A DNA stretch of 56,472 bases, from the IMG/VR virus record IMGVR_UViG_3300019926_000239, positions 1-56,472 of that record. The stretch is one strand, 5' to 3'. This document shows positions 20,033 to 44,853 of this stretch, piece after piece. The DNA is from a virus (taxonomy: Duplodnaviria > Caudoviricetes). The position numbers and the translations under genes are program-made. Under the pieces are notes generated by a model, which was not told the origin of the DNA, did no database searches, and worked only from the letters and a program-made list of their open reading frames with translations. Every line of letters begins with the position of its first letter. The first letter of the stretch is position 1.

Positions 20033-23000
20033 ATGGTAGACGTAGACATAACCTTTGGCGCGGTAGACCTCACGAGTTCTACGTCTACCGAGATAACTGT
20101 TTACGAGGACACTACCGGCGACGGTAACGCGGATAATCAAGCGACACAGACGTTAAGCGCGGGTACGACTTCCTACACTCTTTCCGGGTTTGGCGGCAGC
20201 GGTGATTTATGGTTCGACCTAAAGATAGATGAGGGTAGTGACCTCACGGCGGGTGATATAGTAACCGCACCGGTAGATATAAACTATGCCTCAACGGGAA
20301 CCTCGCTAAACGCGCCGGTAGCCGAGGTCAACGTAGATGACGTTCTGCCTACGTTTGACCCAGGTACCAACTCACTCACGGCACCAACCGCAACGGTAGC
20401 AACCTCCTCACCTTCGCCGGCGGTCGAAATCAAGTCCCTCCTCAACGCACCGCCGGCAACCGTTAACAGCGAAACACCAACGGGCGCGGTCAACGCCACG
20501 GGTGTGGCGGCGGCAGCGGCACCCGTAACGTCCATCTCCTCATCTACACCGGCGGCAAACGTTGAGGCACGCGTATCACTCACGGCACCCACGGCGAACG
20601 TGGGCACCGACACACCCGCGTTTGAAATACGCGCAACTACTTTCCTACAACCACCGGCGGCAACGGTAAACACCTCGACACCAGGTGGCGAAGTGAGTGG
20701 TAGCGGTACGGCGACAGCGGAGGCGACCGCGGCGGTAGTTAGCACCTCGACACCGGTACCAACCGCGGCGGCACGCGGCACGGCACCGTTCAACGCGGTC
20801 GCGGCAACCCTCACCAGCGAAATACCAACGGCTTCCGTGGATGCGTTCATCTCACTCACCACGCCGGCAGCGTCCATCTCCTCATCTACGCCGCCGGCTA
20901 CAACCGAAGCCACGGGCGCGGTACAACTCTCGCACTCGGTGGCGGCGGTTGAGGCGGTTACGCCGGCGGGTGTGGTTGAGCCTACGGTGGTCGAGGCGTA
21001 CGCACCTACGGCAACGATAGCCACTACCACGCCCACACCACTCGTCGAGCGAACGGAGTTCTTGCGCGCACCCACGGCACTACTCACGACGGAGACGCCG
21101 GCGGGTGTGGCTACCGGCAGCGGCACGGCACCGCTAACACACTCCGCGGTATTGGTGGCAACGTCCTCACCAGCGGGCGCGGTTGAGGCAACCGGCGCGG
21201 TGGCACTTACTCCAACGGAGGTCAAACTACGCACGGAAACGCCGCCTATCGCGCCGGCGCGGCGGATACGGATACGACCGGCTACCGAGGAGTTAACGGT
21301 GGAGGGTGTGGTGCCGACCGCCACCGGCAGCGGGACGATAGAGTTGACATCCTCGACGGAGACGGTCAACGCGGTTACGCCTACGGCGAGCGCGGCAGCA
21401 CGCGGCACCGCACCACTCAACGCGGTCGCGGAGGAGGTTGCGGTCGAGACACCGGGCGTTGACGTGCGCACTCTCCGCGATATGCGTGCGCCGGTAGCAA
21501 CGGTAAACACGACTACGCCGACGCTTGAACCACGCGCACTCGGGACGGTTTACTTGAGCGCCGAGGCGGATGAGGTTGAGGTTACTACGCCGGCATTCGC
21601 CGCCGCCGGTAATTCGCCCGTATCGTTCGCGGCACCGCCGGCGGTAATACAAAGCGCTTCACCCTTCATCACGGTTGAGTTGGTTGACCGCCTCACCGCC
21701 GGACCAGCAACCATCACGTCGTCCGCGGAAACGCCAACGGCTACCGGCAGCGGCACCGCCACGGCAAACGTTGAGCGCGCCGCGGAAGTTGAGGCGGTAG
21801 CACCCACACCGTTCCGCCTCTCCCGCATCCTGGTGGCACCACTCGAAACCATTTCATACACACTCGCCGCGGAGGAGGCACGCGCCGACCTCTCATTTGG
21901 CAAGCCACCGACAAGCCGGCGGAAGCCGATAGAGAACCAGCGCGATGAGCGTGAGACGAGGGCAAGTATAGGCGACCGCGAGGATAACGTGACGCCGCGC
22001 GACCCAAGCGAACCGGCGGATGTTGAGATACAGATAACCGATACGGTGACGCCCATACCGGAAACGGGTGAAAGCGTCGTCACGGCGCGGATACGTAACA
22101 CCGTGTCGGAACAACGTACGGTCACGGCGGAACTCAACATAGATTCCCAGGATGTATCCAACCCGGTGGATAGCGTTACGCTTGATATGGACGCGCGTAG
22201 CGCCACCAGGGTGGAACTCAAATGGCAACCGTTCACCGGCGCGGGCGGCACTACCTTCGACGCCACGGCAGCACTCTCCAACGATAGCGATACTACGCAA
22301 ATCAAAGTCGAGCCTACGGTGGCGGGCGTTGAGTACCGACCGGAGATACTCAACACCAACGCGCCGATAATAGGTGAGGACGGTTCATGGAATACTCTTG
22401 ATGTGGAGGTGCGGTACATAAACTTCGGTGCCGATGACGCCGGTACCGGCGAGCAAGTTTATCTTGATACGGGTCAGAAACAAGGCGTTGATACGCAAGA
22501 CCTAATCCTCGCAAGTGGCGAGAGCGCCACCATCACCCACACGTGGCAACCGGCTTATTACCTCGATGGTGGTGAGTATGATGTTACGGCACGCGGTGAG
22601 GCGGAAGCGGATATACCCGACCAGACCGTGCGCGACCGCGTAACGGATACGGTGACGGTTGAGTTGATAGGCGACCCCATAGATATACGTGACCCGGAAG
22701 GTAAACTACACGTCAACATCCAAGGCACCAACTCGCCCGTTAACGAGGGTGAGGCGGCAAGCGTCAACGTTGAGGTGACGAACCCAAGCGGCAGCGAGGA
22801 GGCAAACGGCACCATCGTACTCGCTAACCAAAGTTACGGCAGCGGCTACGGTCGGGATGTGGGCTACGCGGAGGTTGAGGAGTTACAACCGAACGGCGTT
22901 ACTACGGTGCCGGTTGTGTGGGCAACGCGTGAGGGCGATAAAGGCGACCATAACCTCACCGTACGCAGCGGGTGCGCGAACGGCGTCAACGACGACGAGA

Positions 23001-27648: not shown

Positions 27649-29274
27649 ATGGAACAAAAACAACTCAACGAAGTGGACGAGTATAGCCACGGGCGTATAG
27701 AAGCGGAAATACCGGATACGGCTACCGAGCGGCAAACCGAGGTTTTGGTGGCGGCGATACGTAACCCCGACCTCAAGATAAGCGAACTTGCGGAGGCGAG
27801 CGACCTCGACCCTAACCACGTGGTTGAGGTGCTACGTAGCCTCGCCACCGGCGTGCTACAAGAGCAAGCACGCGCCGCGCACGAAGCAAGTAACCTCCGC
27901 GACGGGCACAAAGAGGCGGAGAACTTTAGCGAACTCACGCGCAAGCAAAAGGCGGTCGTGGACTACCTGGCACGCCACCCGCGTATCGACTGGCGTACCG
28001 TGAGCGGTGCCGACCTCAACGAAGGGATACGTGAGTATGAGGAGGGTGAGGCGGCGGACGCACCAGCGATGTCCGATTCGTACGTTAAGCGTGTGGCAGC
28101 GCAATACGCCGGACTCATCGAACGGCGGCGCGCGTGGTACCGTGAGCATAACCCCGCGGCAATCAGCGACGAGGAGGTGAGCGTCGAAGCCAACCGACCG
28201 GGTAAAGAGGATACGCCGCGTGAGTACCTCGGCGACCGTTTCGAGTTGCCAAGCGAGAACCTCGACGTGGGTGAGGGTGAGGATGCCGTCGAGGAGTTAA
28301 CCGAGGACGAACGGCTTGACCAGGCGTTCAAAAAAGCAAGCCAACGCCTCGCCACGGTTGAGGTGGTCGAGGGCGAGTTATACCTCAACGGTGAGCATCA
28401 AGATACGCACCGCGTTGAGCCGCGTAGCCACATCGGCGACGACGACTTTTACGACGGCGACGTGCGCATCGGTGAGGTATATGAGGGCGTGGTTAACGGC
28501 TTCGCAAGTTGGGGCGTGTGGTGGACGGTGGGCGGCACACCAGACACGCCGGACGATGTGAGCGGCATATCGCCGGAGGACGAACTCAACGCCGCCGGTT
28601 ACACGACAGACAACTTCGAGGTGGGCGACACTCATACGCTTGTGTGCTTCGGACGCGTAACCGGTCAAGACGGGCGCACCAGGCATCGGTTCGTACCGGA
28701 ACCGGAAGCGGTGCGTAAGCGGCGTCGTGAGCGCCGTAGACGCGGCGTTAGCGGAGAGGGTGAGGCAACGGACGCGGAGAGCGAGGACGGACGTGAGGAG
28801 GGCGAGAGCGACGTTTACGAACCAGACAACTACGACCGCGGGGATGCAGCGGAAACCCTCGACAACCTGGTGGGCACGGTAAGCACGATGGTCGAGCGCG
28901 TGAACGAGTTGGAGGATGAGAACTTACCGGAACGTATGGAAGCGGTAGCCGCCGGGTTAAGCGAGGTTGAGGAGGACGTTAGGGATGCCATCAATACGGC
29001 AAGCGGCGGCGCGGGCAAAGCCGACGAGGCAATCGAGAAGGTTGAGGAGTTACGCGAGGACGTTGAGGAGTTAGCCGAGGGTGTGGGGCGCGTAGGCGGG
29101 CAAGCGCACGAAAATGAACAGGCAATCGAGCGCGTTGAGGATGCGGTGCGTGCGGCAGCGGACGCCGACCCCGACGTAGACCTACAAACCGCAATCCAAG
29201 AGATACGCGACCACGGCGGTGAGGTGCGGTTCAACGCGGTAAACAGCGACGAGGGAGGTGAGGACGATGAGTGA
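27649..29274 (+). CDS. multidomain protein: HTH, S1/OB-like domain, coiled coil
   Basis: LKISELAEASDL HTH; IGEVYEGVVNGFASWGVW...FEVGD S1-like; GGAGGT before ATG 27649. Confidence 0.65.
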   Translation: MEQKQLNEVDEYSHGRIEAEIPDTATERQTEVLVAAIRNPDLKISELAEASDLDPNHVVEVLRSLATGVLQEQARAAHEASNLRDGHKEAENFSELTRKQKAVVDYLARHPRIDWRTVSGADLNEGIREYEEGEAADAPAMSDSYVKRVAAQYAGLIERRRAWYREHNPAAISDEEVSVEANRPGKEDTPREYLGDRFELPSENLDVGEGEDAVEELTEDERLDQAFKKASQRLATVEVVEGELYLNGEHQDTHRVEPRSHIGDDDFYDGDVRIGEVYEGVVNGFASWGVWWTVGGTPDTPDDVSGISPEDELNAAGYTTDNFEVGDTHTLVCFGRVTGQDGRTRHRFVPEPEAVRKRRRERRRRGVSGEGEATDAESEDGREEGESDVYEPDNYDRGDAAETLDNLVGTVSTMVERVNELEDENLPERMEAVAAGLSEVEEDVRDAINTASGGAGKADEAIEKVEELREDVEELAEGVGRVGGQAHENEQAIERVEDAVRAAADADPDVDLQTAIQEIRDHGGEVRFNAVNSDEGGEDDE

Positions 29275-29497
29275 GTACCTACGCAACGCGCAAACGGGCA
29301 CGTTCGACGCCCACCTCTTTGAGCGTGAGGAGGTCGAGGATGCCGGCGGCGGTGTGGGTGAGCAAGCGGATAAGCCGGTGGCGAGCGTGTGCAACTTCAC
29401 AACCTCATACGGTGAGTTCGAGGAGGTTGAGGACGTTGAGGACGCGGAGGGGTTGTGTGAGAAGTGCCGCGATGCAGCGGGTGAGGCGGATGAGTGA
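29267..29497 (+). CDS. small Cys/His protein
   Basis: H...C...CEKC; GGAGGTGA before ATG. Confidence 0.65.
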   Translation: MSEYLRNAQTGTFDAHLFEREEVEDAGGGVGEQADKPVASVCNFTTSYGEFEEVEDVEDAEGLCEKCRDAAGEADE

Positions 29498-29687
29498 CGA
29501 GGTGCAAGAGGTGGTCGAGGAGGTTGACCAGCATCTCAAGTCGGCGCTTGAACACGCAAACACTCACATGAGCCACGACGACATACGCCCGTCCGCGCTT
29601 ATGGCGTTCGACGAGGTTGAGGAAGCGCGGCAAGCACTCAACAAGATTGACGAGCGCGACTTTACCACGGAGGAGGACGATGGTTGA
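29490..29687 (+). CDS. hypothetical protein
   Basis: Acidic helical ORF coupled to neighbours. Confidence 0.65.
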   Translation: MSDEVQEVVEEVDQHLKSALEHANTHMSHDDIRPSALMAFDEVEEARQALNKIDERDFTTEEDDG

Positions 29688-30045
29688 GTGGGTTGAGCAA
29701 GAGGGTGAGGAATGGATGTTGTACCGCAACCAGGGCAACACGGCGGCACTCATCACGCCGGACAACCCTCTCCGACAGTGCCGGGCACCAAGCGTCCTCG
29801 CCACGGTAAGAGTGACGCGCCAAGCGTTGCGTATGGCGGAATACCTCGGCTTCGCAAACGCGCGCATAACACCCGCACTCGTGGATAAGGACTCTCTCAA
29901 GACCGTCCCAGGTTTGTGGGTGCGCCCGCACGACGACGACTACCGTACGGTTGAGTATGAGGGTGAGGAAGTGCATCTCCTCGTAGCGGGGCGGGATGTG
30001 GACGACGACGAGGCGGAGGAATACAACGTGGCGAAGGTGAGGTGA
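29680..30045 (+). CDS. hypothetical protein
   Basis: ATG 29680 after GGAGG. Confidence 0.65.
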   Translation: MVEWVEQEGEEWMLYRNQGNTAALITPDNPLRQCRAPSVLATVRVTRQALRMAEYLGFANARITPALVDKDSLKTVPGLWVRPHDDDYRTVEYEGEEVHLLVAGRDVDDDEAEEYNVAKVR

Positions 30046-30485
30046 GTATGGTCAAACCAGAAGACCGGCTACCGGATGGCGTGGATACGGTTGAGGAGTA
30101 CCGTGAACTACCGCCTACGGTGAAAGGCGACATCGAGGTGGACGCCACACGCATTCCCAAGAAGTACGCGCGCCCACCGCGGCACGAACTCGAACAGATA
30201 ATCGAGGAGGGCGATGAGCGTACGGGCATCTACGTGGTGGCGGAACACTACGATGTGGGTGACAGCGTAGCCGGACGGTGGTTGTGCCACTACGGGTTAT
30301 ATGAGCCGGTGCGTGACGAGGACGGCAACGCTACGGAAGCGGGCACTTGCAGCGACATGGGCAAACGCCTCATCGAGATGGACCCGGACGAGTTTAGCCG
30401 TGAGTACGTGCCGGAACGGCTACGCCGCGACCAGGGTGAGGAGGTAACTCGCCAAACGAACGAAATGTTCGCGGAGGGGGATTAG
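30042..30485 (+). CDS. hypothetical protein, paralog of 745..1068
   Basis: Shared PPR.EL, RW...G.YEP, DEFSR.YVP. Confidence 0.75.
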   Translation: MSMVKPEDRLPDGVDTVEEYRELPPTVKGDIEVDATRIPKKYARPPRHELEQIIEEGDERTGIYVVAEHYDVGDSVAGRWLCHYGLYEPVRDEDGNATEAGTCSDMGKRLIEMDPDEFSREYVPERLRRDQGEEVTRQTNEMFAEGD

Positions 30486-30486
30486 C

Positions 30487-30819
30487 GTGGGCTACCGCAC
30501 GGAGTGCCACTTCGATGGTTGCGCCACGCGGTTCGTTGCGGTTTCACGCGGCGAGTACCTCGAACACGTCGAGGAGGTACACGGTGAGGTTGAGGCGGAG
30601 ATATATCGAGAAGTGAGCGGGCAAGAGGTTGAGGAGATGGATGTACCGCCGGCAGCGGTGGTCGAGTATGCCGTCGAGTCGCTTGAACAGATACTACCGG
30701 TACCACTCGACCAGGTGGAAATCGAGAGCATCGACGTGGCGTTTGACCCCACGGCGGAACGTAGCCACTCGTTCACGTTCGACTTTGAGGACGAGGAGGG
30801 CGGCGGGCAAGATTCATAA
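30487..30819 (+). CDS. C2H2-like zinc-finger protein
   Basis: CHFDGC...HVEEVH. Confidence 0.65.
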   Translation: MGYRTECHFDGCATRFVAVSRGEYLEHVEEVHGEVEAEIYREVSGQEVEEMDVPPAAVVEYAVESLEQILPVPLDQVEIESIDVAFDPTAERSHSFTFDFEDEEGGGQDS

Positions 30820-30845
30820 CCAGGCGGCGGCAATACCGTGGCAAC

Positions 30846-31088
30846 GTGGGCGAACTACCTCGGTGTCCCGATTGCGGGCGTGCCGACCTCAAGCGCGGCA
30901 AGCGTGCCGAAGTGGTGCGTGGTTATTGGTGCCCGGATTGCGTGCGCCTCATCGAGTTCGAGGAGGTACACGACCACCGCCTCGGCAACCCGTCGAGTTT
31001 CGGCACGTTAACGGACATCGTTGAGAGCCAACAACAACCAAGCGAGCAAGAGGACGACAACAAAGGAAACTTCAAACATGGCAGATAG
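30846..31088 (+). CDS. small zinc-finger protein
   Basis: CPDCG...CPDC. Confidence 0.65.
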   Translation: MGELPRCPDCGRADLKRGKRAEVVRGYWCPDCVRLIEFEEVHDHRLGNPSSFGTLTDIVESQQQPSEQEDDNKGNFKHGR

Positions 31089-31356
31089 AATCGCAAGAAT
31101 AGGCGTAGCGTTGACCGTGGCGGGTTTGGTGTGGGCGGGCGTGGTGTATTACACACACGGCGTCAACAACGCACTACTCGCCCTCGGAATAGCAACGGTC
31201 GGGTTCCTCCTCACCGCCGCCGGTGCGGATGAGGACGAGGTGGTTACGGTATGCGAAGCGTGTGGTGCCGACCCGGTGCCGCCTCAAGAGGGTGGCGTTT
31301 ACCGGTTGTGTGAGCCGTGCGAGGACGAGTTGCCAACGGACGCGGAGGGTGAGTAA
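31078..31356 (+). CDS. two-TM membrane protein with C-terminal zinc finger
   Basis: Two hydrophobic helices then CEAC...CEPC. Confidence 0.7.
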   Translation: MADRIARIGVALTVAGLVWAGVVYYTHGVNNALLALGIATVGFLLTAAGADEDEVVTVCEACGADPVPPQEGGVYRLCEPCEDELPTDAEGE

Positions 31357-31810
31357 CGTGGGCGGCGCGGGCAAAGAGCGCGGCGTCGTTAAGGCGTTCT
31401 ATGAGTTGGGTTTCGCCGTGCAACGTTCACCGAGTAGCGGCAGCGCCACGGAACGAGAGTTACCGGATATAACGGTGCTACAACGCGACGAGGTTGATGG
31501 TGTGGTGAGGGCGCGGGCGATGGCGATTGAGCATAAGGCGACCAGCGACACCACCGCGTACGTGGACGGGCAAGAGGTTGAGGAGTTGCGTGAGTACGCG
31601 CGCCGTGCCGGCGCACAACCATACCTCGGCGTCAAGTTCAAAAAGAGCGGTGTGCGCCGTCCGCACTACCTGGTTAAGCCGAAGGATGCGCGCCTCACCA
31701 GCGGCGGCAACTTCGGGCTACCGCACGCGGATGTACGTGAACGCGCCGTATATGAGGTCTACGAGTCCACGGAACAGAAGCCGGCGGAGTTCAACCGCGT
31801 CGAGGAGTAA
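31349..31810 (+). CDS. hjc: archaeal Holliday junction resolvase
   Basis: G...ER, GFAVQRSPSSGSATERELPD, AIEHK. Confidence 0.9.
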   Translation: MSNVGGAGKERGVVKAFYELGFAVQRSPSSGSATERELPDITVLQRDEVDGVVRARAMAIEHKATSDTTAYVDGQEVEELREYARRAGAQPYLGVKFKKSGVRRPHYLVKPKDARLTSGGNFGLPHADVRERAVYEVYESTEQKPAEFNRVEE

Positions 31811-31814
31811 CCGG

Positions 31815-31834
31815 GTTTTCGTTTTTTCTTTTTT
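31815..31834 (+). terminator. archaeal oligo-T terminator
   Basis: TTTTCGTTTTTTCTTTTTT right after hjc stop. Confidence 0.7.
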
Positions 31835-32043
31835 GGTAGCGTGAGAGATAGGCGGGCGTGTGACGGGAGTACCGTAACACTACGATAGGACGGCACCGTT
31901 ACGTATGGCGATTGTGTGTTTTTGAGGACGTTTTTTGGTTTTTGGATGCGCCGGTACTACTACTATTCTAACCTAATAAGTTACCATACCGTTACCGTAC
32001 CGATAGGATTTAAGCCGTATGCTACCGCATCCGTTAGCGTACT

Positions 32044-32640
32044 ATGTCGGAGGAAAACGACCGCACCCAGGTGGGCGCACGTGTGGATACGGAAATCTAC
32101 GAACGGTTCAAAGAGTATAGCGAGAGCGAAACCGGGAAATCCTCAAAGGGCGTCGGGGAAACTCTTGAGAAGGCGATGCTTGAGTATATGGACGACGACC
32201 GGTTGAGCCGCATCGAAAACAAGGTTGACCGCCTACTCGATGGCAGCACCCAAAAAGAAAAAACGCCAAAAACGGGCGACCCGTCACGGCGTGAGAAGCG
32301 GTTAAGGCAGATTGAGTCCGACCTCGCCGGTGAGGACGAGGTGGTTACGCAAGAGGATGTCAACGACCTCATCCGTAAGCACGCCGGTGGCAGCAAGCCG
32401 ACGCTACGTGAGTATAACCGGCGGCTACGTGAGCGCAAGAGCGTGTTCCCGCGCCCGAACCACGACTCGATAGTTTACACGGATGCCGAACGTTTTGTTC
32501 GTGAGGTGAACGAACTCGCGGAGAGCAAGAGCCTCCGACCGGCAACGTATGAGGAGACAGTCGAGCGGTATGGGCGCGCGTGGTGGCAGCGGCACCTTCC
32601 GGCAAGCGATGAGCCGGACGACGACCGTGCGTTCTCATAG
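32044..32640 (+). CDS. ribbon-helix-helix regulator with C-terminal helical domain
   Basis: RTQVGARVDTEIYERFKEY...ETLEKAMLEYM; TTTAAG about 35 bp upstream. Confidence 0.65.
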   Translation: MSEENDRTQVGARVDTEIYERFKEYSESETGKSSKGVGETLEKAMLEYMDDDRLSRIENKVDRLLDGSTQKEKTPKTGDPSRREKRLRQIESDLAGEDEVVTQEDVNDLIRKHAGGSKPTLREYNRRLRERKSVFPRPNHDSIVYTDAERFVREVNELAESKSLRPATYEETVERYGRAWWQRHLPASDEPDDDRAFS

Positions 32641-32877
32641 GGCTAAATTTAAGGCGGCGTGGCGTTTACGTGTGTGTGAGTGCCGAGGTGGTTTCCGGTA
32701 AAGGGTTCACCTCACACACACTTTTTACCGCCGCCGCCTCGGCGTCTCATTTAACACGAGTCCCATACCGTGTTCACCTCCCTTTGGCGCGGCGGCACGT
32801 GCGCGGGCAACCGCGTCACCGCCGCGTTTTCCTACTTACTCGAACACTAACCCACGGAAGGCGCGGGGCTACGCCAC

Positions 32878-32933
32878 CATAAGGTATAAGTGATACCGCC
32901 ACGGACGATAAGGTAGAAGGTGAGGTGAACCAG
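32878..32933 (+). promoter_or_regulatory. dispersed promoter/leader repeat copy 7
   Basis: CATAAGGTATAAGTGATACC...GAGGTGAACCAG then ATG 32934. Confidence 0.9.
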
Positions 32934-34016
32934 ATGCAACAAAGCGAACCACTAAGAGAAATACTCGGCAACCTCGCGGATGAGTACGCCGAAGGCAACC
33001 CCGACGTACAATTCGACGACCAACCCCGCATCAGCACGGACGGCGAAACCATATACGTGAACCCGGAGTTCGCGGATATGCTTGGCATCGACGTAAGCGC
33101 CGCGAACGAGTTCCGCCTCGTACGCAACACCCTCAACCATGAGGTTGCGCACGAACTATATAGCGACCTCGAAGCCAAAGAGGAGTTCGGCGCGCGGTAC
33201 GAGGACGAGGGTTACACGCAAGTAGCCGGCACCGTTCTCAACATACTCGAAGATGCGTACATCGACGCGCGCCGGCTTAGTGAGTACCCAGGGCTACGGC
33301 AAGCGCAAGCGTTCTTCGCGGAGAACCAGATGGACGAGGACGTGAGCGAAAAGCCCACCGGCGAAGCACTACTCACAAGCATCCACCAGATAGCCCTCGG
33401 CGGGCGTGTCAACGGCATCAAGGACGCGGATGAGGTGGTGCGCGACTTTGCGGCTTGGGTACGCCCACGCGTGGTCGAGGTGCGCCGCACACACACCCAG
33501 GACGAACGCGTTGCGCTTGCGGCGGAGGTCACGGATAAGGTCACGGAACTCCTCGACCAACACGGCACCCAGGAACCCGACCTTAGCGACCTCCTCGACG
33601 CACTCGATAGCATGAGCGGCGGCGAACTACCGGACGACGCCGAAATCGAGAACGCGGAACCGCTAACCGACGAGGAGATGCCCGACATGGATGGTGCGGC
33701 GATGCCCGACATGGACGCCGAGGACATGGGTGAGGGTGAGAGTGAGCAAGCCGGCGGTGGCGAGTGCGACGGTGAGGGTGAGGGCGACGAGGGCGATGGT
33801 GAGGGTGGCAGCGGCGACGGCGACGGTGAGGAGGGCGACGGCGCGGAAGGTGAGGAGGGTGATGAGGGCGATGGTAGCGCCGGCGACGAGGATGGCGGTG
33901 AGTACGGTGAGGGTGAGGGTGACGCCAACGGCGGCGGTACACCGGACGAGGAGATGAGGGACATCGACTCACTACTCGACGGGCGTAACCCCGCCGACCT
34001 CAAGATAACCGAGTAG
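32934..34016 (+). CDS. CobT N-terminal-like HExxH domain with acidic Gly/Glu/Asp tail
   Basis: STDGETIY, HEVAHELYSD, NILEDAYID. Confidence 0.75.
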   Translation: MQQSEPLREILGNLADEYAEGNPDVQFDDQPRISTDGETIYVNPEFADMLGIDVSAANEFRLVRNTLNHEVAHELYSDLEAKEEFGARYEDEGYTQVAGTVLNILEDAYIDARRLSEYPGLRQAQAFFAENQMDEDVSEKPTGEALLTSIHQIALGGRVNGIKDADEVVRDFAAWVRPRVVEVRRTHTQDERVALAAEVTDKVTELLDQHGTQEPDLSDLLDALDSMSGGELPDDAEIENAEPLTDEEMPDMDGAAMPDMDAEDMGEGESEQAGGGECDGEGEGDEGDGEGGSGDGDGEEGDGAEGEEGDEGDGSAGDEDGGEYGEGEGDANGGGTPDEEMRDIDSLLDGRNPADLKITE

Positions 34017-34175
34017 GTACCGCGTGGTGCCGCGGCGCGCCGCGCCCGCGCGCACCTAACGGTCGATATACGAGTTTTCACGCGCTAACGTATGTTCGCG
34101 TATGCCCTTAGACTATGACACCGCGCCGTACCGGACTTTTTCGTGGACTATGAGGCACACGCGCACATATCTAAG

Positions 34176-34233
34176 CATAAGGTATAAGTGGTACCGCCAC
34201 GGACGATAAGGCAGAAGGTGAGGTGAACCCAAG
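34176..34233 (+). promoter_or_regulatory. dispersed promoter/leader repeat copy 8
   Basis: CATAAGGTATAAGTGGTACC...GAGGTGAACCCAAG then ATG 34234. Confidence 0.9.
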
Positions 34234-35394
34234 ATGGCAAAACTAACAGACGGCAGCGAAACGATAGCAAGCAACCTAACGCCCAAAGAGGTGCGCGCGC
34301 TACGCAACCGCGGCGTTGAGGTGTCGATGGAGATAACGCAAGAGTCCGGCACCGGCGCGGGCGACGAGGAGGAAATCGAGGACGAGAAGGACGAACTCGA
34401 CGAACTCGATGAGGAGGGTGAGAACACCGAGTGGCATGGTGTGGATGAGGATGAGGATTATGAGAGCGCAAGCCGTAGCGACCGCCGCCGCGTTGAGCGC
34501 GCACAACGTGAGGCGGACAAGAACGAGACGCCACTCGGCAAGCGCATCAACGACCGCGACGAGCGCATCACCGGCGGCGATAACCCGTACTACAACAACG
34601 AACAACTACGTGAGGAGATGGCGGACAACAACATGATAACGGACGTGCGCCGGGCGTTCGAGAAGTTCGCCACCGAGGACGTTAAGCGCCGGGAAACCAG
34701 CGGCGACCGCCTCAACATGAGAGCCGCCACCCGGCACCTAAGCGGCGACTACTCCGAGCGCCACGTTTACGAGAGCGAATACACCGCGGCAACCGGTGGG
34801 CGCACGATAGGCGTGGCACTCGACATAAGCGGCAGCATGGACGGCATACGCATCAAGCAAGCCAAGATGGCACTCGCCTCACTTGCGGAAGCCGCCGATG
34901 CGATAGGCGATGAGTTAGTGGCAAGCGGCTACACGACGGCGGACACCTCGACCGGTGCCGAGGACATCCGAACGCCACTCATCACGGCACCAGGTGAGTC
35001 GTTCCGATACAAGCACCTCGACAGCGTGGCACCCAACGGCTACACGCCCACGGCGTGCGGCATCAACGACGCCGCCGACCTACTACGCGACGAGGGCGGC
35101 AAAGAACTCGTCCTGGTGTGTATTACGGACGGCGTGCCGACGCACGACCTCGAAGGCAACCACCTCGGCGACGGTGCCACGGAGGCGGTTGAGGACGCGG
35201 CACGCCTCACCAACAAACTACGCGCGGAGGGCATCAAGGTGTTCGGCATAGGCATCGGCGGCGCACGACGCGACCTTATGCGTGAGATGTTCGGTGAGAG
35301 CGGGTTCGTTATGACCACCAGCGACCAACTTGCGGACGACTTGGTTGAGATGTACGAAGACCAACTCGACATCGAGCGCCCGCACTCGTTCTAA
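34234..35394 (+). CDS. VWA-domain protein (CobT C-terminal-like)
   Basis: MIDAS DISGSM, GYTPT, ITDG, GIGIG. Confidence 0.9.
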   Translation: MAKLTDGSETIASNLTPKEVRALRNRGVEVSMEITQESGTGAGDEEEIEDEKDELDELDEEGENTEWHGVDEDEDYESASRSDRRRVERAQREADKNETPLGKRINDRDERITGGDNPYYNNEQLREEMADNNMITDVRRAFEKFATEDVKRRETSGDRLNMRAATRHLSGDYSERHVYESEYTAATGGRTIGVALDISGSMDGIRIKQAKMALASLAEAADAIGDELVASGYTTADTSTGAEDIRTPLITAPGESFRYKHLDSVAPNGYTPTACGINDAADLLRDEGGKELVLVCITDGVPTHDLEGNHLGDGATEAVEDAARLTNKLRAEGIKVFGIGIGGARRDLMREMFGESGFVMTTSDQLADDLVEMYEDQLDIERPHSF

Positions 35395-35659
35395 CGCCGC
35401 CACCCGCCGCACCGCACCGCACCGCACTACTCTTTTCCCCGACCTCCTCGACTCGACGCCGGCAGCGGTTTCTATATGTTGAGGTTGGGCATGGATACCG
35501 ACGAGATGTAGTCCTCGACGTGGCGATGAGGTCGTCGAGACTCCTCGTACGTGGTTGAACGGCGCGGTGGGCGCGGGCACGCGCGGTTCCACGCGGTGAT
35601 ATGCGGGCGATATTGCGGTGGTCGAGGGGCACCCCGCCGCCGTATGGCGATTGCCCCAC

Positions 35660-35719
35660 CATAAGGTATAAGTAGTACCGCGGTGAATGGACGAATGCGA
35701 GCAAAGAGGTGAACCCAAG
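35660..35719 (+). promoter_or_regulatory. dispersed promoter/leader repeat copy 9
   Basis: CATAAGGTATAAGTAGTACC...GCGAGCAAAGAGGTGAACCCAAG then ATG 35720. Confidence 0.9.
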
Positions 35720-37096
35720 ATGGCAAAAAAGAGCGACTACATCAAGGCGATAGCACAGAACGACGAGAACCCCACCGCGGACGAGATAGCCGACGAGGTT
35801 GACGAACACCTCGGGCACACGCAACGCAAACTCAAGGAACTCGCCGAGGAGGGCGAGATTGAGCGTGAGCGCGGCGGCAACGGCTACGAATACTTCCTCC
35901 CCGCGGAGGCGGAGGCGCTTGTGGGTGAGGGCGGCAGCAACGGACTCGACCGTATGCCCGTTAACCGCGGCTACGATTTCAGCAACCACCGCGTTGAGGA
36001 ACCCCACGAATACTTCTCAAGCGACGACGAGTTAGCGGAACTCAACGCGATGGTTAACGCGCGTGAGGCAACCGGCGAACCCGTGCGCGCACTCATAGAC
36101 GGCGACACCGGCACCGGCAAAACAACCCTCGCCGAAAACGTGAGCGCGCTACAAGAAGCCGCATACTTTGAGGTTCAGATGTCCCCCAACATGGACGAGG
36201 GCGACCTATTTGGTAGCCCGGCACTCGCCGGCGACGAAAGTGTGTGGGTGGACGGCACGGTTACGAAGGCGCTTATGGCAAGCGCGGCACCCGAAACCCA
36301 GGTCAAGAACGGGTGGGCGGCAGACCTCGAAAGCGCACACGACGGCACCGTGGTTCTCCTCATAGACGAGGTTAACCGCGCACCGCCACGCGCTAAGAAC
36401 GCACTCTTTAGCGCACTCGACCACCGCGGGCACGTTACGCTTGAGGGACCGCGCGCCGGTGAGGTCATAAGCGGCGACCCCCTCGACCTGGTTGTTATAG
36501 GCACCATCAACCAGGGCGATGAGTACCACGGCACGGCGCGGATGGACTTAGCCGAAAAGAGCCGGTGGACGACGAGGTTCACCAGCGAGTACCTGGCACA
36601 AGACCCCGACGGTGAGGGCGTTGAGCGCGAGGCGGAACTCTTGGTTAGCCGTAAGGGCGTTGCGCCGGAACTTGCGCGCACGATGGTCGAGACGGTTGCC
36701 CGCGTACGCAAGCGCGCCAACGACCGGAGTGACCGCGCGGTAACGTTCGGCATACCTACGCGTGCGGTGCTTGCGTGGGGCGGCACGGCACACGCCCTCG
36801 CCGAAGCCGGTCTCGACAACCCCGTGGTGCGCGCCGCGGAACGCGCGGTGGTTAAGCCGTTCTACGACAAGGCGGAACACCAGGACGCCCGCGACGAGGT
36901 TATGAGCATCATCGAGGACAAACTACACGGCGCACCCTTTGAGGCGGACGCGTACGAGGAGTTCGCCGCCGACGAGATTGTTGAGTGCGGCGAGTGCGAC
37001 TACCGCACCAGCAAGCGCCGCGCCGAGGACGAGGGCGTGATGGCGGTTATGGAGTGCCCGGAATGCGGCGGCACGGTTGAGCGTAAGAGCCGGTAA
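35720..37096 (+). CDS. MoxR/CbbQ/CobS-type AAA+ ATPase with N-terminal wHTH and C-terminal zinc ribbon
   Basis: GDTGTGKT, LLIDEVNRA, GTIN, MDLAEKSRW; CGEC...CPECG. Confidence 0.9.
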   Translation: MAKKSDYIKAIAQNDENPTADEIADEVDEHLGHTQRKLKELAEEGEIERERGGNGYEYFLPAEAEALVGEGGSNGLDRMPVNRGYDFSNHRVEEPHEYFSSDDELAELNAMVNAREATGEPVRALIDGDTGTGKTTLAENVSALQEAAYFEVQMSPNMDEGDLFGSPALAGDESVWVDGTVTKALMASAAPETQVKNGWAADLESAHDGTVVLLIDEVNRAPPRAKNALFSALDHRGHVTLEGPRAGEVISGDPLDLVVIGTINQGDEYHGTARMDLAEKSRWTTRFTSEYLAQDPDGEGVEREAELLVSRKGVAPELARTMVETVARVRKRANDRSDRAVTFGIPTRAVLAWGGTAHALAEAGLDNPVVRAAERAVVKPFYDKAEHQDARDEVMSIIEDKLHGAPFEADAYEEFAADEIVECGECDYRTSKRRAEDEGVMAVMECPECGGTVERKSR

Positions 37097-38193: not shown

Positions 38194-38655
38194 ATGGGTG
38201 AACCCGAACCCCTACTCGACGCGGAGAGCAACGCCCGCTATCCCGAAGCGATAGTTGAGGAACTCGCAACACGCATCGGCGCTAAAGACCACGCCACGGT
38301 TGAGGCGTGCAACGTACCGGATGAGCCGGCGGAACCGTGCCACCTCATAATAGCCGTCACGGACGAGGAGTTCAACCCACGCGTACCGCCGGCGGTGGTG
38401 CGCCTACTCGAAAAGTATCCCACCGAGGTAGACCCCTCAAGCATCGAGGCGGACGACGCCGGCGTGCTACGCCTACGCGTGAACGTACACCAGGGCTTCA
38501 CGCCCGTCGAGCGCACCAACTTCGGCAAGTGGGGCAACTCGGTGGCGGTGAGCATACCACGCACCGCACTCGAATTAAGCCGGCTTGAGGAGGGCGACGA
38601 CCTGGTTATGAAGGCGCGGGAAAGTAGCATACTCTTGAGCAAGCCGCCGAGGTGA
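38194..38655 (+). CDS. AbrB/MazE/SpoVT-domain regulator
   Basis: KWGNSVAVSIP...LEEGDDL. Confidence 0.8.
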   Translation: MGEPEPLLDAESNARYPEAIVEELATRIGAKDHATVEACNVPDEPAEPCHLIIAVTDEEFNPRVPPAVVRLLEKYPTEVDPSSIEADDAGVLRLRVNVHQGFTPVERTNFGKWGNSVAVSIPRTALELSRLEEGDDLVMKARESSILLSKPPR

Positions 38656-38659
38656 GGCG

Positions 38660-40396
38660 ATGCAAGACACCAGCATCAGGGAAATAATCGACGTGGTTGA
38701 GGGCTTACCGGTGTGGAGTTGGCTACCGCCGCGTCCCCTCACGTCACGCGAGTTCGTTTGCGCGCTACCGGATACGCTACCGTACGCGTACGTAAACATC
38801 TACGCACTCACGGACGACGACTACAAGCCGGACGACACCTTCCGGTTGTTCCTCCTCAAGACGCCAAACCGGTACCACGCGGTGCGCAAAGGCGGCGGCG
38901 ATGTTAGGTGGTACCGTAGCGGCAGCGACGACGGCGACTTACCGATACAAGAGGCGGCGGAAAGCCTCACCCGCCAAATAGCCGAGGGCGAACGCCCGGT
39001 AACGGTGGCGATATGGGACGACTCGGAGGAGAAAGGTAAGAGCGGCGTGGCAACCCTCGACTATGAGAGCGCACCCGCGCGCCGGTACCTCAAGAGTCTC
39101 GACAACGTGAGCAAGCAACGCACACAACACACCTACGCGGCACCAGGCACTTTCGAGGGTTCGGACGGGCGCACGCAACCGGCAACCACGCGCCTACGCC
39201 TCGCCGTCGAGAGCGAACGCGAAACCGGCGCGTTGAGCGAGGAGGTCGATGAGGTGCCCGCCGCACTCGACCGCGCGGCGCGGCATACGTACCTAATGGG
39301 TGAGGAGGTGGCACCGTGGGAGGAGTTGGACGCCTCGGATGGATATGTAGCCGCAAGCCAATTCTACGTCAACGAATACGGCGATAGCCGCGACGTTAAC
39401 ACGGTAGCCGACTTACCGTACACCAGCACCCTCGAAAACGACGCCGAATTTGAGGTTTCCGGCGGCACTCTCGCGGTAGCCGACGAGGAGACGTTCGGCG
39501 GTGAGGCACAACGCACTACGTACGTGCCCACACGCGTCAACGTGGGCGATATAGTCGTCCGATATGGCGGCGGGTGGAAGCAACTACGCACCGCCGACCC
39601 GTTCGAGAGCGTAACGTATGACGGCGTGCAACCGAACGCGCTTGAGCCGGAGGATTATGAGGTCACGGAGACGATGTTACAAGAGGAGTCCGGCGGCAGC
39701 GCCACCCTCCTCAACGCGGCGGTCGAGGTGCCGCGTGACCAGGTGGATTTCAAATGGCAAGCGCCTACGGCAAGCCACGCGGAAACCAACAACATCGCCG
39801 GCACACCAACGTCCACAACCGCGCACTACACCGGCGAGGTTGAGGCGGTTATCGACGACCTCACTTCGTTATATGGCGACGAGATTGTTGACGAGATGTT
39901 CGACCGTGAGACGATACAAAGCACCCTCAACAACATCGAGACGTTGAGTGAGGCGCTTGCGGATGTGAGTGAGTCCGTTGAGCAATCCATCAAAAACCTC
40001 GCACCGGCAGCAAAGGCGGCGCGCAAGAGCGCCGAAAGCGTAGCCGATGGTATGGAAACCAGCGGCGTGGTCGAGGGTATGAACGACGCGCTTGAGGGTG
40101 TGGGCGCGGCACCCGACATCGAGGAGTTGACGGTAAGTGAGGAGTTCAAGGACGAAATCGAGGAGATACGTGAGAGCGCGCGCCTACGCCGTGAGGAGGA
40201 GTATGAGGAGGAGGGGATGCCGTATTCCATTTTTGAGGATGAGGACGATGGTGAGTATGAGGTGGTCGAAACCGGCGTCCCGGTACGCGAGTGGGGCAAC
40301 CTCACGGATATGGTGGAAGGTGAGTTCCCCGAGTTGAGCGAGGAGGAAGTTGAGCGGGTGGCGCAAGAGTTGGCGGATGTGGCGCGGGAACGGTAG
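38660..40396 (+). CDS. hypothetical protein, N-domain paralogous to 51992..52675
   Basis: PVWSWLPPRPLTSRE...ALP...FLLKT. Confidence 0.75.
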   Translation: MQDTSIREIIDVVEGLPVWSWLPPRPLTSREFVCALPDTLPYAYVNIYALTDDDYKPDDTFRLFLLKTPNRYHAVRKGGGDVRWYRSGSDDGDLPIQEAAESLTRQIAEGERPVTVAIWDDSEEKGKSGVATLDYESAPARRYLKSLDNVSKQRTQHTYAAPGTFEGSDGRTQPATTRLRLAVESERETGALSEEVDEVPAALDRAARHTYLMGEEVAPWEELDASDGYVAASQFYVNEYGDSRDVNTVADLPYTSTLENDAEFEVSGGTLAVADEETFGGEAQRTTYVPTRVNVGDIVVRYGGGWKQLRTADPFESVTYDGVQPNALEPEDYEVTETMLQEESGGSATLLNAAVEVPRDQVDFKWQAPTASHAETNNIAGTPTSTTAHYTGEVEAVIDDLTSLYGDEIVDEMFDRETIQSTLNNIETLSEALADVSESVEQSIKNLAPAAKAARKSAESVADGMETSGVVEGMNDALEGVGAAPDIEELTVSEEFKDEIEEIRESARLRREEEYEEEGMPYSIFEDEDDGEYEVVETGVPVREWGNLTDMVEGEFPELSEEEVERVAQELADVARER

Positions 40397-41123: not shown

Positions 41124-43514
41124 ATGGAGTTTTCGGAGTTACCACAACCGGAACGCAAAGAGCGGGTGAACCCGGACGAGTTGGATGTGGATGGCGATAA
41201 CCCCAACGCGATGAGCGGGGCAACCCTCGACCTCCTCAAGCAAAAGATACGCGACCGCGGGTGGATAGGCAACCACATAATAGCCGATACAGACGGGCTT
41301 ATAGCCGACGGCGAACACCGGTGGCGCGCCGCCCGCGACCTCGGGCTTGACGAGGTGCCGGTGAAGTTCTACGACCTCACCGACGAGGAACGCCGGCTTA
41401 TACGCCAAGAACTCAACAAGATACGCGGCGAACACGACGCCGGCGACGACGCCGATGAGTACGAACGCCTACTCGAAAACGGCTACGATGAGGAGTTGGG
41501 CGACCTCCTCGACGCCACCAGCGACACCGGTGAGTTGAGTGAGGTGCTACAAGAGGCGAAGGATAGTGAGCAAGAGCGCACCGAGGAGATAGTTAAAGAG
41601 GTGGAACCGGAATACAACCTCGAAAACCCCACCACCAACTCACTCGCCGACGACTTCGGCGCACCACCCATAAGCGTCCTCGACGCGAATCAACCGTATT
41701 GGCGTGACCGGAAGCAAGAGTGGCGGGAAACCACCGGCTTGGGTGACATAGACGAGGCGCGTGAGGAGATACAAACCACGTCGAGCGAACGGATGAACCG
41801 TAGCGGCACCGGCAGCACCACAAGCATATTCGACCCCGTGCTTGCGGAACTCATGTACCGGTGGTTCGCACCAAGCAACGCCACCGTCCTCGACCCGTAC
41901 GCCGGCGGGTTAGTACGCGGCGCACTCGCATCCTGGTTCGGGCATGAGTACCACGGCGTTGACATAAACGAGGAACAGATAGAGGTCAACCGCCGCCGGT
42001 GGGACGAGGAGGTGACGCCGCCCGAAACCGCGCCGGACAGCGTAACGCCGCCCACATACCACCACGGCGGCGCGCAAGACATCCCCGAGCCACTCGACGA
42101 CGGCGCACCGGACGAGTACGAGTTCATACTCGCGTGCCCACCATACCACGACCTCGAAGAATACACCGACCAAGAGAACGACCTATCGAACATGGCGTAC
42201 GACGAGTTCTTGATGCACTACCGTGAGAGCATCATAAACGCCGCCGACCTCCTCAAAGACGGGCACTTCGCCGTCTACGTAGTCGGCGACGTACGCGACG
42301 ACGAGGGCGCATACCGCGGTTTGGTAGCCGACACCATCAAGTGCGCACAGAACGCGGGCTTGAGCCTATACAACGACGCCGTGATGCGCACACCACTCGG
42401 CAGCGTACAACTCCGCGCCCGCAACTTCTTCGTCCCAGGGCGCAAACTCGTCAAAAGCCACCAAAACATCCTCGTATTCTACAAAGGCACGGAACCGGAT
42501 ATACACGCCATCGAGGAGACGCACGGTGAGCCAAATGAGGCGGTGGATATGAAGGCGGATAGCGTGGTGCGTGAGCAAGTAGCCAAAGAGGAGGACGAGG
42601 CGGCAACCAACGGCACCACGGAAACAACCACCAGCGAAGAAACCACCAACGCCGACGAGTTCACACCACCCACCGACCACACGCCCGACGTATCACCTAT
42701 CGAGGAGTACCAACACAACGGCGGCACCGTACACGTGAAACGCGACGACGCCTACGTGTGGGCGGGCGTACGCGGCATCAAAGGGCGCGCACTCAACCAA
42801 CTCATCAACGAAGCCGACCTCGACCAGCACAACGGCATAACGATGGCGTGCGCACGCCAAAGCCCCAACACCATACGCATCGCCAACCTCGGCGAGTACC
42901 TCGACGTTGAGGCGCACGTCCACACCTCACACGGCGGTTATACCGAAGTAATGGAAATCGCCGAACAACAAGGCGCAACCATACACCAGCATAAACCAGG
43001 GTACATGAACGTCATCAAATCCAAAGCGCAAGAGGACGCCGAGGAGAACCACCGCCTACTCATCCCCTTCGCCGTAAAACACCCGGTGGCGCGTGACGTA
43101 GCCGCCACACAAACCACCAACGTACAACAACACATCGACGAGGAGGAACCCAACCGCATCGTAGCACCCGTCGGCAGCGGCACAAGCCTAAGCGGTTATC
43201 TCAAAGGGCTACACGAAGCCGGCTACACCAACACACCCATACTCGGCGTCAAAGTAGGCAACGACCCCACGCCCACCCTTAACGAACTATATCCTGGGTG
43301 GCGGGAAAACCACGACGCCACCGTTGAGTTGGTGGAAAGCGACCTCGAATACCAAGAGACGCCACCCACTAACAAACAACTCCTCGGCACCGGCAGCCAA
43401 CGCCTAAGACTCGACCCCAACTACGAGGCTAAAGCAATCCCTCACTTAAAAGAGGGCGACCTTATGCTTGTCGTCGCACTACGTAGCACACTACCACCAC
43501 ATCCGTACGAATAA
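41124..43514 (+). CDS. ParB/Srx + amino-methyltransferase + fold-type II PLP enzyme fusion
   Basis: NPNAM, IADGEHRWRAA (ParB); VLDPYAGG, GVDI, ACPPY (MTase); VKRDD..GIKGR, PVGSGTSLSG, LDPNYEAKA (ACC deaminase/D-cysteine desulfhydrase-like). Confidence 0.85.
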   Translation: MEFSELPQPERKERVNPDELDVDGDNPNAMSGATLDLLKQKIRDRGWIGNHIIADTDGLIADGEHRWRAARDLGLDEVPVKFYDLTDEERRLIRQELNKIRGEHDAGDDADEYERLLENGYDEELGDLLDATSDTGELSEVLQEAKDSEQERTEEIVKEVEPEYNLENPTTNSLADDFGAPPISVLDANQPYWRDRKQEWRETTGLGDIDEAREEIQTTSSERMNRSGTGSTTSIFDPVLAELMYRWFAPSNATVLDPYAGGLVRGALASWFGHEYHGVDINEEQIEVNRRRWDEEVTPPETAPDSVTPPTYHHGGAQDIPEPLDDGAPDEYEFILACPPYHDLEEYTDQENDLSNMAYDEFLMHYRESIINAADLLKDGHFAVYVVGDVRDDEGAYRGLVADTIKCAQNAGLSLYNDAVMRTPLGSVQLRARNFFVPGRKLVKSHQNILVFYKGTEPDIHAIEETHGEPNEAVDMKADSVVREQVAKEEDEAATNGTTETTTSEETTNADEFTPPTDHTPDVSPIEEYQHNGGTVHVKRDDAYVWAGVRGIKGRALNQLINEADLDQHNGITMACARQSPNTIRIANLGEYLDVEAHVHTSHGGYTEVMEIAEQQGATIHQHKPGYMNVIKSKAQEDAEENHRLLIPFAVKHPVARDVAATQTTNVQQHIDEEEPNRIVAPVGSGTSLSGYLKGLHEAGYTNTPILGVKVGNDPTPTLNELYPGWRENHDATVELVESDLEYQETPPTNKQLLGTGSQRLRLDPNYEAKAIPHLKEGDLMLVVALRSTLPPHPYE

Positions 43515-44200: not shown

Positions 44201-44311
44201 ATGCCAGGTCAAGAGTTCGCCGCGCAACCGTCTACGTGCCCCGAGTGTGATAGTCCCGTGGTTAATGGTGAGTGTGTGCGTGCCGGTTGTAACTACACCG
44301 TCGAGGAGTAA
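44201..44311 (+). CDS. 36-aa zinc-finger microprotein
   Basis: MPGQEFAAQPSTCPECDSPVVNGECVRAGCNYTVEE; TTTTAG about 30 bp upstream. Confidence 0.6.
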   Translation: MPGQEFAAQPSTCPECDSPVVNGECVRAGCNYTVEE

Positions 44312-44589
44312 CCGCGCGGAACCGCGGCTTACCACTCGCTCGCTAAAAACGACGAGACTCCTCCACGGCAGCGAGGGAACCCGTCGTTTCCGGCGAGTGT
44401 TTGTAAAGTTCTCGGACGAGAAAGCGAGGGAACCGTCAAGTTCGAGCGAGGGAACCGTCGTATAAGATACGAGGGATGTAAAGTTCGAGGGAAAGTCTCG
44501 TCCACGTATGTGGAGGAAAATACGAGGCTCCCCTCGCCGGAACGCCACAACTCATAAACCGGCGGGTGCCGTACCGCACTCCACCGCGT

Positions 44590-44663: not shown

Positions 44664-44684
44664 TAAACGCAAGCGGGCGCTTAC

Positions 44685-44851: not shown

Positions 44852-44853
44852 GT

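Follow-up and report, generated by a model that had tools for sequence, protein, structure and literature searches.

Two complements of a shared start word beside a regulator gene in a haloarchaeal virus suggest a structured masking RNA

Why would a virus carry, in a single intergenic spacer, two complements of the Shine-Dalgarno (SD) word that stands at the head of most of its own operons? The question is raised by IMG/VR virus record IMGVR_UViG_3300019926_000239, a linear sequence of 56,472 bp with 60% G+C, acidic proteins, and an estimated completeness of 84%; this whole sequence is referred to here as the window. The virus is uncultured, salt-loving, and archaeal. The spacer comprises 284 nt (32641-32924) between a regulator-like gene and the next gene, and an earlier reading of the sequence alone (the sequence-only reading) had proposed that it encodes one small trans-acting antisense RNA directed against a dispersed regulon. 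That interpretation is partly supported by our data. The reading we favor is that a plus-strand RNA, either the 3' untranslated region (UTR) of the regulator mRNA or a transcript of its own of approximately 155 nt, hides the start sites of the virus, both in trans and in cis, and we assign it a probability of about 0.45.

Two complements of the start word share one spacer

The putative targets are leaders of a repeated cassette. A cassette of approximately 190 nt occurs 16 times in the window (1879, 6727, 8814, 12126(-), 25506(-), 26357, 32881, 34179, 35663, 40491, 47012(-), 47852, 48585, 49546, 50950, and 56165), and an nhmmer profile recovers all 16 copies with E values from 1e-42 to 8e-22. 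Each copy runs from a GC-rich element to a promoter, AAGGTATAAGT, then a leader of one of two main classes, then GAGGTGAAC(C), with the ATG 1-7 nt further on. Without the promoter, GAGGTGAAC precedes the ATG of two further genes (6889 and 51324).

We found that anti-SD box 1 of the spacer, GGGTTCACCTCAC (32703-32715, plus strand), when reverse-complemented, matches the extended SD word GTGAGGTGAACCC exactly. When up to 2 mismatches are allowed, the extended word occurs 28 times on the two strands together, where 1.16 occurrences are expected, and none of 100 shuffles reached 28. Five matches are exact: 1918+, 6766+, 34218+, and 46961-, which belong to cassettes 1, 2, 8, and 11, and box 1 itself (32703-). 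Four cassettes carry GTGAGGTGAACCA (12 of 13 positions) and eight carry AAGAGGTGAACCC or ACGAGGTGAACCC (11 contiguous). Complementarity to the boxes extends over 13, 12, or 11 contiguous nt at all 16 cassette SDs and over at least 9 nt at the two further starts. Anti-SD box 2, GTGTTCACCTCCC followed by TTT (32770-32785, plus strand), pairs at 13 of 14 positions with the class A leader AAGGUGAGGUGAAC. Its core, GTTCACCTC (32772-32780), is a second 9-mer, 67 nt on from the first, and the second copy as a whole spans 32770-32782.

The distribution of the shorter word sets this spacer apart. The 9-mer GAGGTGAAC has 23 sites: 16 after the promoter, 2 before an ATG, 3 within open reading frames (ORFs) as in-frame Glu-Val-Asn codons (13281, 32503, and 53780), and 2 orphans. 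Both orphans lie in this one spacer, antisense to the flanking genes. The complementarity to the shared SD word is real and beyond chance. The targets are 200 nt to 31 kb distant, and similarity is confined to 9-13 nt. The heptamer TCACCTC occurs 9 times on the plus strand against approximately 3.4 expected; because 3 of the 9 are true minus-strand SDs, there is no overall excess, and these words show clustering in spacers only.

Read on the minus strand, the boxes are SD-like words that lead to no credible gene. After box 1 there is no ATG, GTG, or TTG in any frame within the following 13 nt. After box 2, an ATG lies 5 nt downstream of the minus-strand word and opens a 13-codon micro-ORF, MGLVLNETPRRRR (32725-32766, minus strand), which is probably not a gene, being basic in a virus with acidic proteins. 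When the spacer was compared with phages and plasmids by BLAST, only chance-level matches resulted, and a comparison with Rfam found no family at gathering score, the best being the mir-2007 hairpin (24.9 bits against 100, E 0.05).

These results agree with much of what the sequence-only reading had described. The landmarks that it named, TTTAAG (32648), GAGGTG (32685), the 13-mer (32703-32715), the T run (32722-32726), and the second word (32772), are all where it had placed them. Its claims of exact complementarity in copies 1, 2, 8, and 11, of 11-12 nt of pairing with the remaining copies, and of no credible minus-strand ORF hold as well.

Other words of this kind occur elsewhere in the window. 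Anti-SD-like words at 11557-11576 were rejected as candidates, being explained by two small, acidic ORFs on the minus strand (11475-11691). One ORF, of 41 amino acids (11566-11691), has its stop at these words; the other, of approximately 33 amino acids, probably starts under them, at a GTG within GGAGGTGAGTGAGGTGGAC, and ends at 11475. Weaker plus-strand words, GGGTTCACATCCC, TCTCACCTCC, and ACACCTCAC (1744-1756, 6562-6571, and 6596-6604), are found upstream of cassettes 1 and 2 and could be further cis-masking sites or chance.

Two competing folds are predicted for a putative spacer RNA

A TATA-like TTTAAG (32648-32653, plus strand) begins 8 nt after the regulator stop codon and is a presumed promoter. 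As the sequence-only reading had suggested, a TATA box is plausible here, the same hexamer being found 35 nt before the regulator ATG. Proven promoters of HF2 include CTTTAAGT, and their TATA box lies at -26 (PMC8707807). The hexamer at 32648 also contributes to three in-frame stops (TAG, TAA, and TAA).

Folding predicts two alternative structures for a plus-strand RNA, separated by a T5 run (32722-32726). The short, or closed, hairpin (32670-32726) is formed by GTGTGTGTGAG and CTCACACACAC, includes the pairing GAGGTG:CACCTC, and is followed by the T5 run (-23.5 kcal/mol, z -3.35). Here GUGUGUGUGAG pairs with CUCACACACAC and GAGGUG with CACCUC, the fold-back on GAGGTG that had been expected from the sequence. 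In an RNA that ends at T5, the unpaired probability of the anti-SD word is 0.0-0.1 at 11 of its 13 bases, and opening it would cost 11-13 kcal/mol. The earlier proposal that an RNA of approximately 50 nt ending at T5 is the active form is therefore not supported by the predicted fold. The stem (32670-32721) followed by T5 fits the definition of a hairpin-plus-T-run terminator; a simple terminator scan with a loop limit of 8 missed it.

The long, or open, hairpin (32669-32760, plus strand) has 33 pairs, 6 of them G-U, and a 13-nt apical loop, UCACCUCACACAC, with a predicted energy of -48.5 kcal/mol. Its main stem begins at 32676, 28 nt past the first T of TTTAAG. On the plus strand its z score is -7.24, and none of 200 shuffles was as stable. 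The minus strand reaches only -34.2 kcal/mol (z -2.59) and cannot form the long stem because the 6 G-U pairs become A-C there. Among 7048 plus-strand segments of 92 nt it ranks first after correction for GC content. With DNA parameters the strand asymmetry shrinks (z -3.99 vs -2.48). The long hairpin is predicted to form only if the RNA continues past T5, the T run then lying inside the stem as part of the 3' arm of the inner stem. In this open form, nine bases of box 1 (32707-32715) lie in the apical loop.

The T5 run is likely a leaky terminator. Runs of at least five T number 16 on the plus strand, and 11 of these are outside crude gene calls. Since there is no T run from the regulator stop to 32722, the regulator transcript must cover box 1. 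The modeled folds make it more likely that the active form would be a read-through RNA of approximately 155 nt, ending at T4 (32826-32829), or the regulator 3' UTR, and not an RNA of 50 nt. A GC-rich hairpin followed by TTTT (32786-32829, plus strand), which is the upstream element of cassette 7 (the profile match begins at 32764), is a possible 3' end for the long RNA. As a separate observation, TTTTTA at 32722 might serve as a TATA box in its own right, with an RNA start near 32748; the resulting RNA of approximately 80 nt (32748-32829) would begin with an unpaired box 2 and continue into the GC hairpin and U4, the classic shape of a small RNA.

The predicted box 1 duplex amounts to -24.4 kcal/mol with the class A leader and -21.6 kcal/mol with class B, and the part of box 1 in the loop (32707-32715) needs 0.0 kcal/mol to open in the long form. 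Box 2 needs 1.5-5 kcal/mol in that form and yields duplexes of -21.2 kcal/mol (class A) and -15.3 kcal/mol (class B). Target sites in the leaders open at 2.4-6.1 kcal/mol and give duplexes of -12 to -24 kcal/mol. Summed, the net is approximately -9 to -15 kcal/mol for both boxes and both leader classes. In the read-through fold, box 2 pairs with the SD of the next gene, the cis target, whose promoter AAGGTATAAGT, leader, SD (32920-32932), and ATG (32934) occupy 32881-32936 on the plus strand.

The neighboring gene encodes a regulator-like protein and has no SD

The gene upstream of the spacer (32044-32640, plus strand; stop TAG, 32638-32640) encodes a regulator-like protein of 198 amino acids with a ribbon-helix-helix (RHH)-like N-terminal part and a winged-helix-like C-terminal domain. 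The N-terminal match to RHH_3 (E 0.046) is weaker than the cut-off, and residues 4-47 match PDB 2k6l_A, which we take to be an RHH protein, at E 0.004. An AlphaFold model has a pLDDT of 81.6, with residues 80-185 above 95; modeled as a monomer, the N-terminal part shows two helices and no strand. Foldseek found no match to the model at E<=0.001, and its weak winged-helix matches have E>=0.026. The family comprises 155 representatives at E<=1e-3. Adjacent genes encode VWA, AAA ATPase, and Hjc proteins, a replication-type module.

No GAGGTG lies upstream of the regulator ATG, and the gene has no SD. Its presumed TATA box, TTTAAG (32009-32014, plus strand), is 35 nt before the ATG at 32044, from which the mRNA appears to be leaderless or near-leaderless. 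Between hjc and the regulator gene lies an AT-rich stretch (31811-31960) with five T5-T6 runs (31822-31943), possibly strong insulators or terminators, or an unwinding region. Given the missing SD, the TTTAAG box, and the upstream T runs, the regulator looks like a separately controlled, leaderless unit.

Short repeated words surround this gene. TACCG occurs four times just upstream of the regulator ATG (31957-32030), three times before the TATA-like box and once after it; in 15 of the 16 cassettes it comes next after the TATA box, and the remaining cassette has CACCG. CGGTA at 32696 and TACCG at 32726 and 32765 flank both anti-SD boxes. The element ACTACTACTA lies upstream of the regulator gene in both the window and Halorubrum phage Hardycor1, together with TACCG here and TACCG/CGTAAC-type words there (44080-44125). 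Words of the TACCG type may act as an operator; a 5-mer is weak evidence. Inside the gene, A5, A6, and A5 runs (32252-32272) encode a Lys-rich linker that is common to several family members.

A parallel arrangement is found in Hardycor1

The sole DNA-level relative among deposited phages is Hardycor1, with 68.7% identity across the VWA and AAA ATPase genes. Related repeats have been described upstream of six of its ORFs (PMC7911831). In our analysis, a promoter, a leader, and a start word, GAACGACCATGAAC, are common to these repeats, which have no SD. With up to 2 mismatches the start word has 9 sites in Hardycor1 against 0.33 expected: 7 coincide with annotated start codons, 1 falls out of frame within the 5' end of HrrHc1_260, and 1 is an orphan. 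The copy in HrrHc1_260 is perfect (43170-43183 in the Hardycor1 sequence, L009), lies 8 nt inside the annotated start, and has an ATG that opens a non-acidic frame.

The orphan lies beside a homologue of the regulator. The HrrHc1_265 product shares 31% identity with the regulator over 84 amino acids (E 4e-9), and the orphan word (45030-45043, minus strand) is 94-107 nt past the HrrHc1_265 stop and antisense to that gene. It stands at the apex of a 70-nt hairpin with self-complementary flanks, and in the plus-strand fold its loop bases are unpaired with probabilities of 0.99-1.0. An AT box, TTTTTA (44953), lies 17 nt after the stop. The start words of the two viruses are unrelated, and each orphan exactly matches the word of its own virus. 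The AAA ATPases are 57% identical. The two viruses are thus old relatives that have unrelated start words and the same layout. For HrrHc1_265 itself (44202-44936), the alignment favors the ATG at 44202 (MSDRVQPGG...) rather than the annotated 44232, and the extra N-terminal residues include the presumed RHH strand.

Conservation in relatives, which the sequence-only reading had named as a check, is seen in Hardycor1 as the same layout with another word and is absent from four other viruses with a regulator homologue. HRTV-28, HRTV-4, V_ICIS4, and contig L010 carry the homologue inside operons with no spacer after it, so that the spacer layout occurs in 2 of 6 homologue-bearing viruses; among these four, shared start words were sought only through a repeat scan of the 7-kb L010 locus. 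DNA-pattern searches for close relatives gave single chance matches in viral contigs (15 and 11) and single matches in genome contigs (56). Among metagenome contigs, such a search gave 109 stretches, and the best 80 of the 109 are all single matches, none with several cassettes. In protein searches the regulator matched one locus (L010) in one search and none in the others, and neither the next gene nor the AAA ATPase gave a match; a word-index protein search with the regulator returned only itself.

Leader repeats have further copies in these viruses. In Hardycor1, a 13-nt part of the leader, GTGACCGGGGCGA, recurs twice in antisense, at 22217-22229 and 22747-22759 (minus strand), within a 530-bp direct repeat that spans HrrHc1_135 to _145. 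HHTV-2 (L205/L206) has its own repeated promoter-leader, GGGAAACCTTTAT ... TGAGTGTAGCAGGT, at 361-407, 1704-1717, 5926-5972, 22282-22327, and 38650-38696(-), and the word TGAGTGTAG is common to HHTV-2 and Hardycor1 leaders. We found no regulator homologue in HHTV-2.

Proposed mechanism and alternatives

We propose that a structured plus-strand RNA with two complements of the shared start word is encoded in the 145 nt that follow the leaderless regulator gene. The RNA would be the 3' portion of the regulator mRNA, a transcript from the TTTAAG 8 nt past the stop, or both. We infer its transcription, its ends, its pairing in the cell, and its effect on translation from the sequence and its predicted folds. 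T5 would separate two forms, and as a leaky stop it may set the ratio of closed to open. Transcripts that stop at T5 would adopt the closed hairpin, in which the anti-SD word is paired with the SD-like GAGGUG; those that read through to T4 (32826-32829, approximately 155 nt) would form the 33-pair stem, with UCACCUCAC in the 13-nt apical loop and box 2 nearly single-stranded. This open form would pair with the SDs of the 16 cassette leaders and the two promoter-less starts and thereby prevent their translation in trans. Where transcription extends into the next gene, that gene's SD would be masked in cis by box 2, and the regulator, having no SD, would escape masking.

A plus-strand RNA is favored because of the strand-biased fold, the intact words amid unrelated flanks, the escape open to a regulator without an SD, and the parallel in Hardycor1. 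A broader claim, that a two-part switch of a DNA-binding regulator gene and a structured RNA is kept in layout across distant haloviruses while its apical loop co-evolves with the start word, is one we advance only tentatively.

Several results weigh against a masking RNA. In cofolding, the net for the hairpin alone averages +1.38 kcal/mol, worse than 40 of 40 shuffles, although this type of calculation does not allow a partner to pair within a closed loop. For the 157-nt RNA, cofolding gives -9.49 kcal/mol against -6.24 +/- 2.98 kcal/mol, a value matched by 4 of 40 shuffles and so not significant. T5 may halt most transcripts and leave the closed form. On the minus strand, a TATA-like box, TTAAAT (plus coordinates 32744-32753), is spaced for a start near 32722. 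The Hardycor1 hairpin folds equally on both strands (-29.2 vs -31.7 kcal/mol), its T5 precedes the orphan, so that the regulator mRNA may not reach it, and the alignment of its orphan with a whole leader makes a cassette origin likely. The layout is missing from the four other homologue-bearing viruses described above, the searches for close relatives found none, and a search for sequencing runs covering 29000-37000 found no run.

The plainest alternative is a transcription stop and 3' UTR of the regulator in which the SD complement is a by-product, such as a short inverted piece of leader, that has no target. The terminator-like hairpin and T5, the concentration of T runs after genes (11 of 16 outside crude gene calls), the burial of the anti-SD word in the short form, and the nonsignificant cofold controls all fit it. 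A stop, however, needs no particular sequence, and yet the exact 13-mer and the additional 9-mer of the spacer are the sole orphans in 56 kb; the long fold, which is far more stable, draws on sequence past T5, and Hardycor1 repeats the layout with another word. On balance we regard a plain stop as unlikely. A minus-strand counter-transcript that starts near 32722, from TTAAAT or from the next cassette's TATA box reversed, might instead silence the regulator during lytic growth, with the orphan SD at its 5' end binding ribosomes without translation as a stabilizer or decoy. SDs at 5' ends are known as stabilizers in Bacillus. On the minus strand the TATA-like box precedes the start by approximately 26 nt, either strand can form the short hairpin, minus-strand T5, T6, and T5 runs (32272-32252) could terminate such an RNA, and a bidirectional halovirus TATA box is documented in HF2 (PMC8707807). 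Against this, the strongest fold is on the plus strand only (z -7.24 vs -2.59), a profile search found no minus-strand cassette promoter here, and in Hardycor1 the orphan is not preceded by an AT-rich box on the minus strand. The A runs in the regulator gene encode the Lys-rich linker of the family and need no other reason. Taken together, a counter-transcript seems quite unlikely.

Two further explanations dispense with a regulatory RNA. The word or its inverted repeats could be a DNA site that is bound by a viral protein or used in cassette recombination or replication, as the repeats CGGTA (32696-32700) / TACCG (32726-32730) and TACCG (32765-32769), the recurrence of TACCG behind cassette TATA boxes and near the regulator ATG, the replication-type neighbors, and the structure that the plus strand retains as single-stranded DNA (z -3.99) would allow. 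A 5-mer is too common to carry this far (approximately 55 per strand expected), RNA is indicated by the presence of six G-U pairs and by a strand asymmetry that is much larger when RNA parameters are used, and GC skew has no switch here and thus gives no origin-like signal; we consider a DNA site improbable. The last explanation is that the element is a remnant of an inverted cassette header and no longer has any function, the outcome that the sequence-only reading had named as its refutation. The Hardycor1 orphan lends it some credit as to origin, not present use: it aligns with a whole leader, sharing acgtatga, gtcgggg, and 17-18 nt at the start codon, with the TATA region replaced. The 16-copy nhmmer profile, in contrast, matches the window's element only at 32715-32703 (profile positions 174-186, E 0.76), and the element in this record is not a decayed minus-strand cassette. 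Decay would also have been uneven, 13 of 13 positions here and 18 of 18 in Hardycor1 (against cassette 095) being intact among unrelated flanks. The flanks are now self-complementary with the word at the hairpin apex, and in these old relatives with unrelated words each orphan tracks its own virus. A relic without function has, in our estimate, a very slim chance of being correct. The masking RNA remains the reading we prefer.

Other features of the region

The GC-rich element of the cassettes is GCGCGGGCACGCGCGGTTCCACGCGG-like and is followed by a variable part before the promoter. A short T run often lies 3' of this element, which may end the transcript of the upstream gene. Downstream of the spacer, an ORF of 363 amino acids with the HExxH-like motif NHEVAHE has its probable ATG start at 32934. 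This ORF and the VWA protein of 386 amino acids, both within 32934-35394, together seem to match a single MIDAS/VWA gene of 710 amino acids in Hardycor1 (L009 38836-40968), which suggests a split or a fusion.

Comparison with known systems

Gene control in archaeal viruses is little understood. If the masking RNA is real, no trans-acting regulatory RNA encoded by a virus would have been described in archaea before it, one small RNA that silences a whole regulon; a trans-acting RNA against the start word of many operons would be a new regulatory logic and a compact handle on a whole viral program. Hardycor1 is in culture, and the idea is testable now. According to a published title, Haloferax volcanii does not use an SD mechanism at 5' UTRs. 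If this rule holds for the host of the virus, the purpose of a perfectly kept SD-like word of 9-13 nt is puzzling, and a viral RNA partner is one answer: the unusually long leader SD would be kept for a viral RNA as much as for the ribosome.

A literature search at the level of titles and abstract openings found no such element described, which is no proof of absence. Passages from the papers on Hardycor1, HF2, PhiH1, and HFTV1 describe none either. The HF2 intergenic repeats and the Hardycor1 upstream repeats are multi-copy and promoter-bearing and are the counterpart of the 16 cassettes (PMC8707807; PMC7911831); an antisense orphan copy is mentioned for neither in passages from their papers.

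Bacterial small RNAs with C/U-rich anti-SD loops, such as RNAIII and RsaE of Staphylococcus, use a pyrimidine-rich seed to pair with the SDs of several mRNAs. The element would resemble them in its short seed placed in a hairpin loop or linker. Those RNAs are cellular, bacterial, and linked to Hfq or RNase III, whereas the seed here is tuned to a virus-specific extended word. The element is also like an intrinsic terminator in having a stem and then T5 directly after a gene; it differs in that the stem holds a functional-looking word and competes with a stronger fold that swallows the T run.

The sequence-only reading had invoked the antisense RNA of phiH, a precedent that serves as an analogy and not as a match. 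T_ant is a counter-transcript of the DNA it targets, a cis-antisense RNA that overlaps T1 and forms a long duplex. It pairs with this one early lytic transcript, the hybrid is cut, and the mRNA becomes untranslatable (PMC8707807; PMC6210493). The antisense RNAs reported for phiH and HFTV1 in passages from the papers examined are counter-transcripts of single loci. Like T_ant with RepR, the arrangement here would combine a repressor and an antisense RNA in a haloarchaeal virus. A cis-antisense RNA of the T_ant kind was rejected, the targets being 200 nt to 31 kb away with no full overlap; the element shares only 9-13 nt with targets encoded elsewhere and would act in trans.

In the c4 RNA of phages P1 and P7, a ribosome-binding site is covered by pairing with two short boxes. 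In this system (immI), a phage RNA and a protein repressor hold lytic functions off through a binding site on the target mRNA (PMC8198154). The element would be alike in being a phage-type antisense immunity RNA beside a protein regulator, and its two boxes would match those of c4. Where c4 acts on one operon, its own, the RNA proposed here would act on 16-18 dispersed transcripts in an archaeal host.

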